Positions 1 to 12,420 of a DNA stretch of 41,537 nucleotides are shown here, piece by piece; within the stretch, counting starts at the first letter, position 1; each line of letters begins with the position of its first letter. This stretch comes from a virus. The notes beneath the pieces were generated by a model that was given only the letters and a program-made list of their open reading frames with translations, ran no database searches and was not told where the DNA came from. The position numbers and the translations under genes were made by a program. The stretch spans positions 1 through 41,537 of the IMG/VR virus record IMGVR_UViG_3300049010_000004, one strand, 5' to 3'.

Positions 1-127
1 TCCCGCGTCAAAAGTTCTGGATATATCTCTTGTTGATAAACACAGGTGCTCATCACTGCCTCCTTATGCAACCCTGTTAAATACGCGCTGACCAACAAAT
101 TGCCCTAGCGCATTTCCTACTCACCAC
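1..127. repeat. 127-bp direct terminal repeat, identical to 41411..41537 (circular-assembly overlap or terminal redundancy)
   Basis: Bases 1..127 (tcccgcgtcaaaagttctgg...catttcctactcaccac) recur exactly as the last 127 bases. The repeat runs through the 5' end of the minus-strand ORF 41281..41463. Confidence 0.9.
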
Positions 128-408
128 AGCAATCAGTAGAAGGGGCAAGCCCCTCCAAGTCTCTCCTTGGTGTCACGGTGCCGATCGCATGTATCCCATC
201 GCTTGGAGCGCTCCTTGATGGCTTGGCCTTCCCATACTCAGAGTCACCGTTTACGTCCGCACTTTGGCTTGTTGCTTGCCTCTTCTACTGACTGCACCAC
301 AGCATCTAACCTTGTCTAGGAGGCTTCACCCTGGGTATCAGTATTCAGATACTTACTGCTTGGCGGCCTAGCCTTGTGCTGCGTATCGAATTGCTAGTCG
401 ATGGGTCT

Positions 409-5346: not shown

Positions 5347-5772
5347 ATGGATCCCATCAAGCGCAAATGGAAGCTCATCAACCAGAACGTCAAGCTTTCC
5401 ATGCTTGCTGTCCTTGGCAATCTCCCTGTAAGCGAGAGTAACCCTCTAGTCATCACTCTGGACGAAGAGAGGCGGAACCTCGATCAGAACGCCAAGTTCC
5501 ACGCGCTGTGCGAAGACCTCGCTAAATCCGGCTATCAGTGGGCAGGCAAGGAACGAACCGCAGAGCAATGGAAAGTACTACTGGTTTCTGGTCACGCAAT
5601 GGCAACCAAGCAAGGTGCAGAGATGGTGCCAGGAATCGAGGGTGAGTTCGTCAACCTTCGTGAATCGACTGCACGCATGAGCAAAGCCCGCAGTAGCAGC
5701 CTTATTGAGTACACGCTGGCTTTCTGCGCTAGCAACAACATCAAACTGACCGATGAAAGGATTGCAGCATGA
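5347..5772 (+). CDS. ninB: NinB/Orf-family recombination mediator
   Basis: 141 aa. 'PLVITLDEERRNLDQNAKFHALCEDLAKSG..W.GKERTAEQWK' parallels lambda NinB 'PIVVTIQERNRSLDQNRKLWACLGDVSRQVEWHGRWLDAESWK'. Confidence 0.8.
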   Translation: MDPIKRKWKLINQNVKLSMLAVLGNLPVSESNPLVITLDEERRNLDQNAKFHALCEDLAKSGYQWAGKERTAEQWKVLLVSGHAMATKQGAEMVPGIEGEFVNLRESTARMSKARSSSLIEYTLAFCASNNIKLTDERIAA

Positions 5773-6176
5773 GACAGAAACACGAACAGATACTAGCCGT
5801 GCTCAAACTGTTGGAGACTGGCCCAAAGACGCTAAAGGATATAGCCGTCGCAATGAACGCCACAAAAGACCGTGTACGAGCATGGATGTACGACCTAGAG
5901 CACATTGGCGCTGTGAGATCGACATTCCAGCAAAGCGGCTATCGAGGATTGGCAAGCAGGGTTCGGGTTATCCATCTGGTCGATAAGAAAAAGTATCAGA
6001 TGAAGGAGCGTAAGCCATCTGCATGGAAGACCAAGGAAGCATACGAGCCGAGCAATCACCCATTGCCGACTGGCGGAACTATCCACCGATTCCTTGACCA
6101 GCCAGAGCGACCTAGACCTCTCCGCAAAATGAACTATAGCTGGATGGGCTATCAGTCTGGACTAGAGGCTGCATGA
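5769..6176 (+). CDS. Hypothetical protein, possible winged-helix
   Basis: 135 aa; ATGA overlaps on both sides. Confidence 0.55.
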   Translation: MRQKHEQILAVLKLLETGPKTLKDIAVAMNATKDRVRAWMYDLEHIGAVRSTFQQSGYRGLASRVRVIHLVDKKKYQMKERKPSAWKTKEAYEPSNHPLPTGGTIHRFLDQPERPRPLRKMNYSWMGYQSGLEAA

Positions 6177-7602: not shown

Positions 7603-7790
7603 ACAAAGTAAACATTTGCATCAGAATAATTCTATTTGCCGCCTTGGTGTATTTCGTTTATCAGGAGACGGGCTTCTTTACTGCGCTGTCGATGACTTTC
7701 ATTTTCGTCTACACAGAACTCAGCACAATGTGTCACCACAACACGCTAGAGACTATAAAAATTATCGAAAAATGGCTGGGGAGTAAATAA
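7599..7790 (+). CDS. Small membrane protein (63 aa, two hydrophobic segments)
   Basis: 'ICIRIILFAALVYFVY' and 'GFFTALSMTFIFVY'; could be holin-like, but there is no adjacent lysin. Confidence 0.5.
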   Translation: MNKVNICIRIILFAALVYFVYQETGFFTALSMTFIFVYTELSTMCHHNTLETIKIIEKWLGSK

Positions 7791-8149
7791 TGAACGCCCC
7801 CGCATACATCGACACCACTACTCAAAAGGTCAAGGATGCCTTGGAGGTTTGGGCAGAATGGATGCAACAGGACGACACCAAGCTAGGATACCCAAGCAAG
7901 AGTGCCGTTATCCTTTCAGGCGGTGGCGCATGGGGTAGTTTCGGAGATGACCTGGAGGATGAAGTAGACGGAACGATGGCAAGGGCTGTAGATGCGATTC
8001 TGGAAGGCATGCCGCTAAGCCAGAAGAACGCGGTGTTCCACTTTCATATTGCGGCAGTATTTACGCCACGGAGAACGCTGATCGAGGACGACTATGCGGA
8101 TGCGTTGGTGTCGGTTGAAGTAGGGCTGAGAAAGCGCGGCCTCGTATAA
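7790..8149 (+). CDS. Possible late-gene antiterminator (Q-like) by position; function uncertain
   Basis: 119 aa. Last gene of the nin-like block, followed by a promoter-like site and two terminators. 'LEVWAEWMQQDD..LGYPS' loosely recalls Q-family N-termini. Confidence 0.3.
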   Translation: MNAPAYIDTTTQKVKDALEVWAEWMQQDDTKLGYPSKSAVILSGGGAWGSFGDDLEDEVDGTMARAVDAILEGMPLSQKNAVFHFHIAAVFTPRRTLIEDDYADALVSVEVGLRKRGLV

Positions 8150-8162
8150 CATGAAATATCGC

Positions 8163-8191
8163 TTGCACACAAGTAAATTTTGTGGGATGAT
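8163..8191 (+). promoter_or_regulatory. Candidate late promoter (PR'-like)
   Basis: TTGCAC 8163..8168, 17-nt spacer, TGgGATGAT (extended -10-like) ending at 8191. Confidence 0.3.
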
Positions 8192-8223
8192 TATTGCGGG
8201 AGAAGTCGCGCCCAGAGAAAACG

Positions 8224-8256
8224 AAGCCGCTAGGTCAATGATTGGCGGCTTTTGTA
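8224..8256 (+). terminator. Candidate intrinsic terminator downstream of the late promoter
   Basis: AAGCCGC(ta.)/(.tt)GCGGCTT stem (8224..8233 with 8242..8251), then a short T-run TTTTGT. Confidence 0.4.
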
Positions 8257-8466
8257 CTTATGGAATGGTGATTGAAACCTGAAGAGATTGCGGCCTGAAT
8301 GCTTAGGCAGGATCTGAGGCGGTATCGAGGATAGCAATCCAGTCACCATCCCATAGGTGCAGTGAATAAGGCAAAACTTCCCTCTCTCGTCAGGGCGAGG
8401 GGAAGCGTAAATGCTCATTGACTCAGTGTGAGTTTGCCGAAATACATTGAGCGCACTTATACCTAG

Positions 8467-8497
8467 AAGCCCCCTCCAGAGATGGTCGGGGCTTTTT
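8467..8497 (+). terminator. Intrinsic terminator before the first late ORF
   Basis: AAGCCCC/GGGGCTT stem (8467..8473 with 8488..8494), T-run to 8497. Confidence 0.55.
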
Positions 8498-8535
8498 CCA
8501 TTTCCGATGCATCTGAGGATGCAGAAAGGTAAAGC

Positions 8536-8781
8536 ATGAAGATCGAGTACAAGGTACGTCCAATCACCCGCTATGTCGTAACTCGTTATGAGCAGAGCGA
8601 TTGCGGGAGGGTTGGTGGAAGCGTAAACAAAGGCGAATACGACAATGGCGAGATAGCGTATGAAGTCGCCTACGCGCTTTGCAAGTCCGATCATGAATCT
8701 TCTGGATACCCAATTGGGGATGAGCGCATAAAATATCCAGAGAGAGTAGGCGTTCGCTCGGCTGGTAGTAGTTTAGATTGA
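8536..8781 (+). CDS. Hypothetical protein (81 aa)
   Basis: RBS GAAAGG upstream; co-directional with the late genes. Confidence 0.55.
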   Translation: MKIEYKVRPITRYVVTRYEQSDCGRVGGSVNKGEYDNGEIAYEVAYALCKSDHESSGYPIGDERIKYPERVGVRSAGSSLD

Positions 8782-9104
8782 AAGAACTATCACTAAGACC
8801 ATACAACGGCAGACTGTTCGTAACTCACACTAAGCAAGACTACGAACGAAGCCACAAAAAGATATTTAAGACCGCCGATATACTTACTTGCGCTCAAGAA
8901 GGACGATTCGGTGGCGGCGAAGGTCATGATGGCTTGTGGACATACCTGATCTACGCAGAAACGCCACACACTCTTGCTCACGAACTATCGCATGTTGTAT
9001 TGCACGTATTCGAGCGATGCGGGATTGACCCTCGCGAAGCTGGAGGAGAACCGTTTTGTTACATGCTCAGCCAGTTAATGCTCGAAGCAAACGAACACCC
9101 ATAG
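8778..9104 (+). CDS. Small HExxH-motif protein (possible zinc metallopeptidase-like)
   Basis: 108 aa. 'TLAHELSHVVLHVFE' contains HELSH. The TTG start overlaps the upstream stop. Confidence 0.45.
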   Translation: MKELSLRPYNGRLFVTHTKQDYERSHKKIFKTADILTCAQEGRFGGGEGHDGLWTYLIYAETPHTLAHELSHVVLHVFERCGIDPREAGGEPFCYMLSQLMLEANEHP

Positions 9105-9424
9105 CAATATGGGCTAACGTCCGGTTCTAGACCGTTCCCCACTCGCTAGGCCAACGAGTGGTTGAAGCTTCCCACGGGAGGAAGCGACAGTGAATCCCGT
9201 TTCTCCAAGAAGTCTGATGATTATAGAGACCCACCATATACCGCCGAGTTAACGGGTCAACGGTTCCAAAGCTGAGTATGGGATAGTCATCAGTCTTGTT
9301 GGATGGCTGGCTCACCTGATTGGAGAGTGACTTTGCTGAGAACCGACAGGTTATGCGCCCTAAGCAAGTGCAAGGCTCAAGCATCGTAAACTGCTACTGC
9401 GTTCGATTCGCAGGCCACCAACAA
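9105..9424 (+). ncRNA. Candidate structured noncoding RNA / regulatory leader (class unknown)
   Basis: 320 nt with no credible ORF. Hairpins at 9139..9161 (7 bp) and 9167..9185 (6 bp). Long-range helices pair 9211..9220 with 9287..9296, and 9296..9307 with 9414..9424. A tRNA T-arm-like hairpin CTGCG-TTCGATT-CGCAG lies at 9397..9413, followed by GCCACCA. Confidence 0.35.
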
Positions 9425-9470
9425 CCCCACACCACAGCCTCATGCTTAACTGCGTGGGGCTTTTTCTTTT
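9425..9470 (+). terminator. Intrinsic terminator closing the structured region
   Basis: CCCCAC/GTGGGG stem (9425..9430 with 9454..9459) with an inner CAG/CTG, then CTTTTTCTTTT. The RBS GGAG and ATG 9481 follow immediately. Confidence 0.5.
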
Positions 9471-9480
9471 GGAGTACCGG

Positions 9481-9648
9481 ATGAGCACCAATGACGTTAC
9501 AGGCGACCGTATCGTTACCAAGTCATCCAAGAAGTACGAAGACAACTACGACGCAATCTTTCGAAAGGACGAAGCCATGTTCGGTAAAAAGCCAAAGGGT
9601 ACGGGTAAGAAACCAATGCCAGGTAAGAAAGGTAAAGCAGGCTGCTAA
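9481..9648 (+). CDS. Small lysine-rich protein (55 aa)
   Basis: 'MSTNDVTGDRIVTKSSKKYEDNYDAIFRK' followed by a KKPKGTGKKPMPGKKGKAGC tail. RBS GGAG 9471..9474. Confidence 0.55.
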   Translation: MSTNDVTGDRIVTKSSKKYEDNYDAIFRKDEAMFGKKPKGTGKKPMPGKKGKAGC

Positions 9649-10314
9649 ATGCTTCCTGTGTATGTCGGGTATGACGAACGGGAAGCCGTCGCATACCACA
9701 CTTACTGCAATTCAATCATCAGACGGGCTACAAAGCCCGTTTCTTTTTGCCCATTAGCCTTAAACACGCTGCACGAATACGAAGAGAAGCACACAGACGG
9801 AAGTAACGCTTTCATCTATTCGCGCTTCCTAGTCCCTCATCTACAGAACTACCAAGGATGGGCGCTGTTTGCTGATGGCGACATGATCGTAAACGAAGAC
9901 ATCGCTAAGTTATTCGACTTGGCAGATGAAACCAAAGCCTTGATGGTGGTGAAGCATGACTACAAGACTAGATTCCCACGCAAGTATCTCGGCAACAAGA
10001 ACGAAGACTATCCACGGAAGAACTGGTCAAGCGTCATCCTGTGGAACTGCGGTCACCCAAAGAACAAGGTCCTTACGCCGGAATATATCCAACAGGCAAG
10101 CGGAGCACTTCTTCATCGCTTTCAATGGCTGGACGATGGAGACATCGGGCAACTGAAGCACGCATGGAATTGGTTGGTTTCCGAGTACAGCTATAACCCA
10201 TCAGCCAAGTTACTTCATTACACCGTAGGCACTCCCTGCTTCCAGGAATACGCAGACTGCGAACACGCAGATCAATGGTATTCGGAATACGAGAAGGCAA
10301 GAGCGCCACTTTAA
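9649..10314 (+). CDS. GT-A fold glycosyltransferase (GT8-like, DxD motif)
   Basis: 221 aa. 'VYVGYDEREAVAYHTYCNSI', 'YSRFLVPHL' and 'ALFADGDMIV' (DxD) fit retaining GT-A enzymes. Confidence 0.6.
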   Translation: MLPVYVGYDEREAVAYHTYCNSIIRRATKPVSFCPLALNTLHEYEEKHTDGSNAFIYSRFLVPHLQNYQGWALFADGDMIVNEDIAKLFDLADETKALMVVKHDYKTRFPRKYLGNKNEDYPRKNWSSVILWNCGHPKNKVLTPEYIQQASGALLHRFQWLDDGDIGQLKHAWNWLVSEYSYNPSAKLLHYTVGTPCFQEYADCEHADQWYSEYEKARAPL

Positions 10315-10341
10315 CCGCCAATAATCCAAAGGGAACTGGCA

Positions 10342-10554
10342 ATGGACAACACAGAATACATCAGCAACAAATTACGCGATTACCGAGACACTGTAGCTCA
10401 GCAGCAGAACACCATCTCGCAATTGATCGGCGGCAATTACCCATCAAGAGCAGTGGTAGAGCATGCACTAAAGACGCAATCTGGCTCAGTGCTAAACCTC
10501 AGTAAGGCCAAGCAAGAATTCTTCAATCAGTTACAGAAACAAGCATGCGAATAA
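10342..10554 (+). CDS. Hypothetical protein (70 aa)
   Basis: Preceded by the AATAATCCAAAGG.AACT.GCAAT leader that recurs before the next gene. Confidence 0.55.
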   Translation: MDNTEYISNKLRDYRDTVAQQQNTISQLIGGNYPSRAVVEHALKTQSGSVLNLSKAKQEFFNQLQKQACE

Positions 10555-10898: not shown

Positions 10899-11165
10899 AT
10901 GGCCGCTCCTGAAGGTAACAAGAACGCCACTAAGAACAAGTACTGGTCTGATGCGCTTCGTAAATACATCTTACAGAACCCTAAAGAACTAGAGGAAGCA
11001 GCCAAGGCTTTGTTCGCTAAAGCCAAGGATGGCGATGTCGCTGCAATGAAAGAGATTGGCGATAGGTTAGAGGGTAAAGCAGTCCAGCGTGTAGAAGGCT
11101 CTGGTGAAGATGGCGAGTTCATCACCAAGATGATTGTGGAGCTAGTAGAGCCAAGTGGAAGTTAA
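10899..11165 (+). CDS. terS: Terminase small subunit (probable)
   Basis: 88 aa starting 'MAAPEGNKNATKNKYW'. Lies immediately upstream of TerL and overlaps it. The ORF-track TTG start at 10866 is less likely. Confidence 0.5.
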   Translation: MAAPEGNKNATKNKYWSDALRKYILQNPKELEEAAKALFAKAKDGDVAAMKEIGDRLEGKAVQRVEGSGEDGEFITKMIVELVEPSGS

Positions 11166-12420
11166 AGCACAGTTCCCTGCCAAGCTAGGGTTCCTGTTTC
11201 ATCCAAAGCGATACAAGGTGGCAAGAGGCGGGCGAGGCTCAGGCAAGTCATGGGGGTTCGCAAGGGCGCTACTCATTAAGGGCAATCAAGAGAAGCTGCG
11301 TATCGGATGCTTCCGAGAAGTGCAGAACTCCATCAAGGATTCTGTTCACAAGCTGCTGAATGACCAGATACAAGCATTAGGCTTGGGGCAGGATTACCAA
11401 GTCTTGGCGACTGAGATCAGAAACAAGCGCACCGGATCGGAGTTCCTGTTCTCCGGCCTATCAGACCAGACCGATGAATCCATCAAGTCGTTTGAAGGTT
11501 TGGATATAGCGTGGGTAGAAGAAGGCCAGGCCATCAGTAAGCGGTCTTGGTCAATCCTCATTCCTACTATTCGTAAGCCTAACTCCGAGATATGGGTGAG
11601 CTACAACCCAGACTTGGAAACGGATGAGACGCATCAGCGCTTTGCTGTAGATCCGCCAGAGGATTGCGTGTCCGTCCTCATGAATTACTCGGACAACCCT
11701 TGGTTCCCCGAAGTGCTTGAGAAAGAGCGCATAGAGTGCAAGAGGCGCTATCCGAAAGACTACCCGAACATCTGGGAAGGCAAATGCCGTCCTGCTGCTG
11801 AAGGCGCTATCTACTACGACGAGATGGAAGCGGTTCAGTCCAATGGGCAGATATTGAATCTCCCATACGATCCGAAGCTGAAAGTTCACGTAGTGGTGGA
11901 CTTGGGCTGGAACGATGCCATGTCCATCATTATGGTTCAGAAGACCATCTCCGAGATACGTGTCATTGACTACATCGAGGACACGCACAAGAAGCTGTCC
12001 GATTACTCGCAGATGCTTCATGAGCGTAAATACAACTGGGGCAAGCTGTTCATCCCGCACGATGGATACAACGAGGACGTCAAGGCGGCAAGTGCCTACA
12101 GAATCCTCAAGGATTTGGGATGGGACATTCCCGATAAGAATGATTTAGTCCAAATGAACATCGAGGCTGGCATTAAAGCTGCCAGATTGATATTCCCGCG
12201 CTGTTATTTCGACAAGGTAAAGGCTGCGAGGCTGATTGAGTGCCTCAAGCGCTATCGCCGCAACGTACCAAAGAACACCAACGAGCCAGCATCGCCAAAG
12301 CATGACGAGTTCTCGCATGGCGCTGATGCATTCCGCTATCTGGCACTCGCTGTAGACCAGATGAAGAACGAAGACCGAGCCTGGAAGCCCATCAAGTATC
12401 CGAACATGGGGATTGTGTGA
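11155..12420 (+). CDS. terL: Terminase large subunit
   Basis: 421 aa. Walker A 'GGRGSGKSW', Walker B-like 'LDIAWVEEGQ', and a C-terminal nuclease region ('VVVDLGWND', 'HGADAFRY'). Confidence 0.9.
   Translation: MEVKAQFPAKLGFLFHPKRYKVARGGRGSGKSWGFARALLIKGNQEKLRIGCFREVQNSIKDSVHKLLNDQIQALGLGQDYQVLATEIRNKRTGSEFLFSGLSDQTDESIKSFEGLDIAWVEEGQAISKRSWSILIPTIRKPNSEIWVSYNPDLETDETHQRFAVDPPEDCVSVLMNYSDNPWFPEVLEKERIECKRRYPKDYPNIWEGKCRPAAEGAIYYDEMEAVQSNGQILNLPYDPKLKVHVVVDLGWNDAMSIIMVQKTISEIRVIDYIEDTHKKLSDYSQMLHERKYNWGKLFIPHDGYNEDVKAASAYRILKDLGWDIPDKNDLVQMNIEAGIKAARLIFPRCYFDKVKAARLIECLKRYRRNVPKNTNEPASPKHDEFSHGADAFRYLALAVDQMKNEDRAWKPIKYPNMGIV

Follow-up and report, generated by a model that had tools for sequence, protein, structure and literature searches.

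What fills the gene-free interval just upstream of a small gene and a glycosyltransferase gene in the virus IMGVR_UViG_3300049010_000004 of the IMG/VR collection? The stretch analysed here, called the window throughout, comprises 41,537 nucleotides (41.5 kb) and is a complete viral record with terminal repeats; the interval in question lies at 9092-9470 and is rich in hairpins. Lambdoid late leaders are usually drawn as a promoter, a terminator and an empty spacer. In this case a series of RNA folds clearly subject to structural selection takes the place of the supposed spacer. At the level of sequence comparison, covariation shows the RNA structures, and their modularity, their position and the terminators are shown as well. 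We consider it reasonably likely that 9097-9470 represents the distal third of an untranslated late-operon leader of ~1.3 kb in a P22-like/lambdoid temperate phage, in which three terminators are passed by Q-modified polymerase and RNA cassettes are carried as cargo.

Reading the sequence again recovers all hairpins, the T-arm and the terminator that a first-pass annotation had listed for this interval. The hairpin at 9139-9161 has a 7-bp stem and a 9-nt loop, and the one at 9167-9185 a 6-bp stem. The helix 9296-9307/9414-9424 contains 11 pairs and one bulged A, and the T-arm at 9397-9413, with a 5-bp stem and the loop TTCGATT, adjoins its 3' strand without a spacer. A further helix, 9211-9220/9287-9296, had been described as having ten pairs; it is real, with nine of the ten pairs formed and one T.T mismatch, and extends to 9224/9283. 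The terminator is confirmed by a scanner (stem 9436-9461, T-run to 9470, fold z -4.4), and the ribosome-binding site GGAG (9471-9474) and the ATG at 9481 follow directly, so that 9471-9483 on the plus strand opens the first gene after the leader. Three features had escaped the annotation, namely a GNRA-capped hairpin (9098-9113), a second, small one (9122-9134) and the pairing of 9174-9179 with 9195-9200 in a pseudoknot. The interval likewise lacks a plausible open reading frame (ORF), as had been claimed: frames of 27-85 amino acids occur on both strands, the longest (85 amino acids, minus strand) has no Pfam match, and a close relative swaps out the middle 200 nt entirely. The accompanying statement that the genome is otherwise gap-free is wrong, because 8150-8535 and 54-408 are also free of ORFs.

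Folding of the single sequence is weakly unusual for the whole interval (z -2.0), and the two main modules reach z -1.3 and -1.4. Because the folding energy of the modules is unremarkable, the case for structure rests on comparison with relatives. Rfam 15 at its gathering threshold returns nothing in the window, and at E 10 on 8950-9650 it gives three chance-level small-RNA rows (E 1.1 to 3.4) and no riboswitch class. A blastn search of the interval against a phage collection yields no match; a 24-base word of the 5' module, termed motif A below, retrieved one already known relative and nothing else from viral contigs, and an exact 27-base motif A pattern has zero matches in metagenome contigs. 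Sequencing runs listed as carrying the window sequence are DNA metagenomes (soil, root, rhizosphere, groundwater) and one coded organism, with no RNA run among them.

Relatives were gathered by way of a 119-residue protein encoded at 7790-8149, and ~50 contigs of the phage group, which stem from soil-type metagenomes, were fetched. The window has a lambdoid gene order, comprising a repressor region, replication and nin-type genes and then, from 9481, a rightward block that includes TerL (11155-12420), the portal and virion genes; its distant DNA similarity to known phages is confined to the terminase region. In the relatives, replication genes are followed by NinB, NinG, the 119-residue gene, a gene-free gap of 0.5-0.7 kb, terS/TerL and a P22-type portal, and accessory genes sometimes sit between the 119-residue gene and the gap. 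Across this set the helices are kept through compensatory changes. The interpretation given in the first-pass annotation is partly borne out: the interval contains structured, terminator-ended non-coding RNA on the plus strand, and this RNA is a chain of separable modules rather than one element.

The conserved 5' module of this chain is motif A (9092-9215, plus strand), made up of four hairpins and a pseudoknot, with 93-100% identity among close relatives. Its first hairpin, H0 (9098-9113), has a 6-bp stem capped by a GNRA tetraloop, and in L106 and L108 a changed stem carries a GAAA loop instead of GCAA. The second, HA (9122-9134), with a 4-bp stem and the loop TCTAG, is invariant among close relatives, so its pairing has no covariation test; its loop is kept in the diverged L137. 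Hairpin H1 (9139-9161) presents its conserved 9-nt loop on a 7-bp stem, and H2 with the pseudoknot occupies 9167-9200, the 6-bp stem at 9167-9185 exposing loop 9174-9179 to pair with 9195-9200. In an alignment of 10 distinct sequences, changes on both sides are seen at seven of seven pairs of H1, with 98.5% of cells paired, and at five of six pairs of H2; the pseudoknot, which was not included in the model behind this alignment, has 93% of cells paired and two compensatory pairs. The three best helices together are 96.3% paired, with 14 pairs changed on both sides. An alignment of seven sequences gives 97.5% of cells paired and 13 pairs changed on both sides, compared with 33-47% when the partners are slid, and the same slid-partner control over both alignments gives 33-49%. 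By these comparisons motif A is clearly under structural selection and functional.

These substitutions also bear on whether the inverted repeats might serve as a DNA-level site for packaging, attachment or origin function, since DNA-binding proteins see inverted repeats as well and attP cores contain T-arm-like words. Read on the plus strand, motif A has G-U pairs in place of G-C and A-U pairs, and on the other strand these would be A-C mismatches. Because of these replacements, and because the GNRA tetraloop is kept over an altered stem, motif A is read as a plus-strand RNA and not as a DNA site. The pseudoknot with its compensatory changes points the same way, and the leftward genes, where an integrase would be expected, lie ~25-30 kb from the element at 9092-9470. 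A DNA-level role is accordingly hardly credible.

Motif A is present in all close relatives, and its conservation begins abruptly at the first hairpin regardless of the DNA upstream, which is coding sequence in the window, other genes in L002 and L098, and tRNA-like sequence in L097 and L110. A covariance model built from it (R1) gives weak full-length matches of 14-17 bits at the syntenic place in L137, L143 and L146, lineages in which the 119-residue protein is about 57% identical; by eye, these copies keep the last hairpin and the pseudoknot on new stem sequences. Searches with R1 were negative for 26 more distant loci and for 100 loci with the tRNA-shaped RNA described below, and with filters off they gave no second copy in the early (PL, PR) leaders of the window. 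Motif A was met in this phage group alone, and because of this restriction it is a narrow family; it has no Rfam match at the gathering threshold or at E 10 and is, as far as Rfam goes, undescribed, matching no described family. A boxA/boxB (nut) assignment for H0 was dropped, as the boxA-like word upstream lies in coding sequence of the window alone and is not conserved. The PL leader of the window (54-402, minus strand) has a domain of ~170 nt closed by a long helix (fold z -2.1); its words CTAGGCC and CCTAGAC resemble motif A loops, and this resemblance was rejected for want of a matching fold or an R1 match there. Separately, an insert of the tRNA-shaped RNA in a Stenotrophomonas genome (L337, ~5770-5800) shares an identical 17-nt word with H1 of L106, loop included, which hints that motif A parts and such inserts exchange pieces.

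Downstream of motif A, sequence and order change rapidly from one relative to the next. The segments 9090-9212 and 9412-10346 of the window are 93-97% identical to L002 with the 200 nt in between replaced, and the middle part (9213-9411) is likewise replaced in L097, L098 and L108 and missing from L106. In L106 the terminator follows within ~25 nt of motif A, leaving a compact unit of ~150 nt; among the relatives this distance ranges from ~25 to ~330 nt and holds unrelated inserts. The terminator after motif A has the same sequence as in the window in L106 and is unrelated in L110 and L137. On the upstream side, the 119-residue gene is 99% identical in L002 though the DNA between this gene and motif A is unrelated. 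Taken together, the modules are, by sequence comparison, exchangeable cassettes that relatives delete, replace or move, with the closing helices kept.

The same exchanges decide the fate of another suggestion in the first-pass annotation, that the interval is a riboswitch or attenuator leader controlling the small basic protein and the glycosyltransferase. A structured, pseudoknotted leader ending in a terminator just before the ribosome-binding site would have suited such a device. The gene contexts contradict it: the first gene after the terminator belongs to the glycosyltransferase set in the window, L002 and L097, to an HNH gene in L098 and L148, and to terS/TerL in L106, L110 and L137, where the same module and a terminator stand directly before the packaging genes and no glycosyltransferase is present. 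Because the first downstream gene differs in this manner, the element is to be assigned to the beginning of the late operon rather than to the glycosyltransferase gene. Glycosyltransferases of this kind are common in many unrelated phages, and the element is shared by one of 80 such loci (L002). The highly variable spacing to the terminator with its unrelated inserts, the lack of any Rfam riboswitch class even at E 10, and the fact that no conserved terminator/antiterminator alternative pairing was seen all argue in the same direction, making a riboswitch very improbable. For annotation, this amounts to a glycosyltransferase without a dedicated riboswitch.

Two further modules occupy the variable segment of the window. 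Domain I (9211-9296, plus strand) is a long hairpin with a variable interior whose helix, in the fold, pairs 9211-9224 with 9283-9296; L002 and L098 have other sequence there and still form a complementary helix, with mismatches at the same two places, and the domain is absent from L106. Domain II (9296-9424, plus strand) is a degenerate tRNA-like cloverleaf consisting of an acceptor-like helix, a D-arm, a branched insert, a variable-arm hairpin and the T-arm. A 2-nt linker beginning with U leads to the D-arm (9310-9328), which has a 4-bp stem and an 11-nt loop containing GG, and the T-arm (9397-9413) combines the closing G-C pair (G53/C61) with the loop TTCGATT. When introns are allowed and the threshold is lowered to 80%, ARAGORN draws a class-II cloverleaf like that of tRNA-Leu(GAG) over 9301-9422, containing a 28-nt insert. 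The tRNA-like character suggested earlier is therefore real as regards the T-arm/acceptor-like arrangement and this relaxed cloverleaf; default ARAGORN and Rfam are blind to it. The likeness to transfer-messenger RNA (tmRNA) fell away, as neither the ARAGORN tmRNA search nor Rfam, also at E 10, finds one.

Compared with class-II tRNA (RF00005), domain II has the T-arm with G53/C61 and TTCGATT, the 4-bp D-stem with its GG loop, a variable arm and an acceptor helix. It differs in that a functional anticodon arm appears only after removal of the 28-nt insert, one acceptor position is unpaired, no CCA is encoded, and the whole lies below the default ARAGORN threshold, with no Rfam match at the gathering threshold or at E 10. 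From its sequence, the T-arm is most likely of tRNA descent. With default settings, ARAGORN reports no tRNA or tmRNA in the window and nothing in seven relatives either, and Rfam at the gathering threshold gives, for nine relatives and 10 further loci, nothing except one tRNA row each in L097 and L110. These two rows correspond to a 97-nt sequence 5 nt upstream of motif A (L097 6849-6945, L110 3409-3505), which scores 33.5 bits as an Rfam tRNA against a gathering value of 29, is missed by default ARAGORN and is read by relaxed ARAGORN as tRNA-Val(GAC) with a 26-nt insert, a broken tRNA comparable to domain II.

In sister phages the slot before the terminator is taken by another fold. L002, L098, L108, L152, L146, L095 and L137 carry there a tRNA-shaped RNA. 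The 5' strand of its closing helix is followed after 3-4 nt by a first hairpin with the loop GGCUGA and then by a variable insert, and a last hairpin (loop AGAUCAGCA) adjoins the 3' strand; the loops GGCUGA and AGAUCAGCA are complementary over five to six bases. Because it is located upstream of motif A in L137, this RNA counts as a separate module. A 19-base pattern taken from the first hairpin matched viral contigs and bacterial genome contigs, at least 120 of each, the genome matches being partly chance, since its 17 specified bases are expected ~70 times in 596 Gb. The second loop word follows within 220 nt in 87 of 137 viral or metagenomic matches and in 44 of 120 genome matches, against ~1% expected. 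The flanks pair in 110 instances of the RNA, and across 35 sequences covariation extends to nine of nine pairs of the closing helix, which show up to five pair types, and 95.9% of cells are paired. A strict terminator lies within 150 nt in 31 of the 110 instances.

A covariance model of this RNA (R2) scores 85 bits in HK620 and 38.5 bits in L002. The HK620 copy (NC_002730 16091-16190; L394 2006-2105) lies between the annotated pR'/qut and the late terminator, ~50 nt before tQ. Further copies were met in 937 of 5426 complete E. coli genomes and in phages of Klebsiella and Salmonella as well as Stx-converting phages; at most of these places the annotation shows no feature under the match, and no Rfam 15 family matches the RNA. 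Words reminiscent of a hammerhead in one insert (L158) had no Rfam confirmation, and T-arm-like hairpins were rejected as a family trait of the inserts, being rare (5 of 110). In a Pseudocitrobacter prophage (L289, 3517-3593), a small RNA of the IsrJ family (58.9 bits, above gathering) ends ~100 nt upstream of the tRNA-shaped RNA, and IsrJ-like RNAs may be terminated late-leader transcripts.

Domain II of the window is not a member of this family by model R2, which gives no match at E 10 on 9296-9424 with default filters or with filters off. The two share the slot just upstream of the last terminator, domain II ending 12 nt before it, and a common plan in which a closing helix is followed by a hairpin 2-3 nt behind the 5' strand, a variable insert and a hairpin adjoining the 3' strand; 7 bp of the closing helix are common to the window and L002, L098, L108 and L152. 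They differ in how the arms are joined: domain II lacks the complementary loops GGCUGA and AGAUCAGCA and instead has a canonical T-loop and a GG D-loop, the tRNA way of joining them. Elsewhere in the leader of the window, between the two upstream terminators, a domain of ~95 nt (8261-8355) is closed by a 12-bp helix with one mismatch (~8261-8272/~8344-8355), and the best plus-strand R2 row of that region falls on it at an insignificant 6.1 bits.

Because sister phages carry in one closing helix either a tRNA-derived cloverleaf or a fold whose loops are joined by six Watson-Crick pairs, selection may act on the tRNA-like shape itself. In a wider reading, to which we give a low probability, the late leader would be a cassette rack for tRNA-elbow mimics. 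Set free late in infection, these RNAs, perhaps with motif A among them, would act on a host machine that recognises the shape of tRNA (RNase P, a defence nuclease directed at tRNA, or the ribosome); or else motif A would represent a novel class of antiterminator RNA bound to polymerase. A related explanation holds that motif A, the cloverleaf or both are trans-acting stable RNAs, either excised or made from their own promoter and ended by the last terminator, and that their targets are host mRNAs or host factors able to read tRNA shape. In size and 3' end the compact form in L106 matches a bacterial small RNA, regulatory RNAs are already known among the terminated late-leader transcripts of other lambdoid phages, for example StxS (PMC7547250), the HK620 copy of the tRNA-shaped RNA sits between pR' and an annotated late terminator, and a slot filled in sister phages by another loop chemistry within the same closing helix fits selection on shape. 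Set against this are the lack of a conserved promoter ahead of motif A, where conservation starts abruptly behind unrelated sequence, and the two terminators upstream, with which no modules would be made from the late promoter in a lysogen. We regard trans action as rather unlikely.

The reading as a late leader depends on what precedes the modules. The 119-residue gene (7790-8149, plus strand), in the position of Q, is the last nin-region gene in all relatives and a candidate late-gene antiterminator or activator. In tblastn, two phage records contain proteins labelled antitermination protein Q that match its product (E 5e-11 and 8e-9), and its family comprises 539 cluster representatives at E 0.001 or better. 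A first AlphaFold model from 21 sequences was unusable, with a predicted local distance difference test score (pLDDT) of 49; the model from a deep alignment reaches pLDDT 83. In it, the three C-terminal helices match sigma region 4 (Z 6.5, 66 residues at a root-mean-square deviation of 2.2 Å), and places 2 and 4 of 48,161 go to chains of the antitermination complexes of Q-lambda and AlpA (Z 6.1 and 5.5). Sequence searches of the PDB return nothing, Foldseek has no match at E 0.001 or better, and a profile search of genome contigs found no relative. We consider it quite likely that this protein is an antiterminator.

Directly behind this gene, a late promoter-like site can be read from the sequence at 8163-8191 (plus strand; TTGCAC, 17 nt, GATGAT). 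The promoter at the same position in L095 scores 11 of 12, and similar sites are seen by eye in L106, L110, L097, L137 and L143. The putative -35 region overlaps a short palindrome (8163-8175; CTTG, 4 nt, CAAG), variants of which occur in L097, L106 and L110 and which could be a docking site of the 119-residue protein. Terminator t1 (8224-8256, plus strand; hairpin and U-run, fold z -4.1) follows, and an equivalent hairpin comes after the promoter in every relative read. The window shows the arrangement of a Q-type late leader, a promoter-like site and then an intrinsic terminator within ~100 nt. A second hairpin with a U-run, t2, lies at 8467-8497 (plus strand, fold z -3.6), and t3, a scanner call at 9436-9470 on the plus strand, is the third and last terminator of the leader. 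Near-identical t3 hairpins stand before the late genes in L002, L097, L106, L095, L143 and L146, and the hairpin is almost unchanged even where the 119-residue protein is only 55-57% identical (L095, L143, L146).

Several observations weigh against assigning the interval to a Q-dependent late leader. With respect to the regulator, PF06530 of Pfam is matched weakly, by single members at E 0.0008 to 0.27, an hhalign comparison with QuuD covers 28-30 residues of an N-terminal W-x-x-W stretch at 3% probability, and Z values of ~6 are within the range that helical proteins reach by chance. The promoter-like site of the window is weak; its -35 hexamer agrees at three of six positions, and the consensus scanner missed the site. 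Start sites, ends and read-through of the late leader are all inferred. As to the cargo, the acceptor helix of domain II has one unpaired A and is extended by pairing between leader and trailer, which tells against a processing step by RNase P, and the strong conservation and covariation of motif A imply a function that is not named by calling it leader cargo.

Such a function might be antitermination in cis, with motif A acting as an RNA of the put kind that stays on polymerase once transcribed and takes it past t3 and the terminators beyond, whether or not the 119-residue protein takes part. Motif A is compact, has several hairpins and lies downstream of the promoter and upstream of a terminator; the variable distance to that terminator would be tolerated by a processive mechanism, and conserved loops over covarying stems suggest a bound partner. 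Its position downstream of t1 and t2 means, however, that these have already been overcome by something else, and if a constitutive antiterminator lay directly upstream, the well-conserved t3 would serve no purpose in any transcript containing it. The put RNA binds the beta-prime zinc-binding domain and suppresses downstream terminators. The put RNA of HK022 is ~65 nt long with two hairpins, occurs in both early operons of that phage and needs no phage protein (PMC8632103), whereas motif A measures ~110 nt with four hairpins and a pseudoknot and has no second copy in the PL or PR leaders. Antitermination by motif A is therefore, in our view, unlikely.

If the interval is instead the distal part of a Q-dependent late leader, events might run as follows. 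Transcription would begin just behind the Q-position gene (~8163-8191), and unmodified RNA polymerase would be halted by t1 (~8240), t2 (~8480) and t3 (9436-9470) in turn. The Q-position protein would make polymerase termination-resistant and permit read-through of all three terminators into the small gene, the glycosyltransferase, terS, TerL and the virion genes, t3 presumably serving as a back-up barrier that guards the late genes from read-through. Between t2 and t3 the leader would carry as cargo two accessory genes (8536-9104) and then self-folding RNA modules, comprising motif A as a new fold, the long hairpin, and a cloverleaf that derives from or mimics a class-II tRNA without a working anticodon arm. 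By analogy with the tRNAs of phage 933W, this tRNA-like module could be recognised by tRNA-processing enzymes of the RNase P type and released as a stable RNA, and we think it more probable that the cassette would be treated in the same way as tRNAs located there in other lambdoid phages. The accessory gene at 8778-9104, upstream of the element, encodes a 108-residue protein with an HExxH motif, a weak SprT-like match and a match to PHROG 1365; its homologues are present in other phage lineages, and in L091 a tRNA-shaped RNA lies ~1.5 kb downstream.

Beyond the window, the tRNA-shaped RNA is present in hundreds of phages and prophages of proteobacteria, HK620 and Stx-converting phages among them, although it is neither annotated nor represented in Rfam. 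The occurrence of tRNA-derived and kissing-loop versions in the same closing helix is a testable hint of selection on a tRNA-like shape. If shape is indeed what is selected, phage RNA would interact with the tRNA-handling machinery of the host late in infection, an interaction so far unstudied.

Several known systems resemble parts of this arrangement. HK022 put can be compared with motif A by position alone, both being multi-hairpin nascent RNAs between a promoter and terminators (PMC8632103); motif A is distinguished by its larger size and pseudoknot, its single copy and its place in a late leader. The closest counterparts are the lambdoid late leaders of P22, HK620 and 933W, in which the annotated order of Q, pR', qut and one or more terminators is the same as in the window. 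In 933W, several leader terminators enclose three tRNA genes in the same slot, and the late leader of HK620 measures 650 nt compared with ~1.3 kb in the window. In contrast to these phages, the window has a regulator of 119 residues that is no clear member of any of the three Q families, its late operon begins with accessory and packaging genes rather than lysis genes, and its leader holds two protein genes together with a new RNA module.

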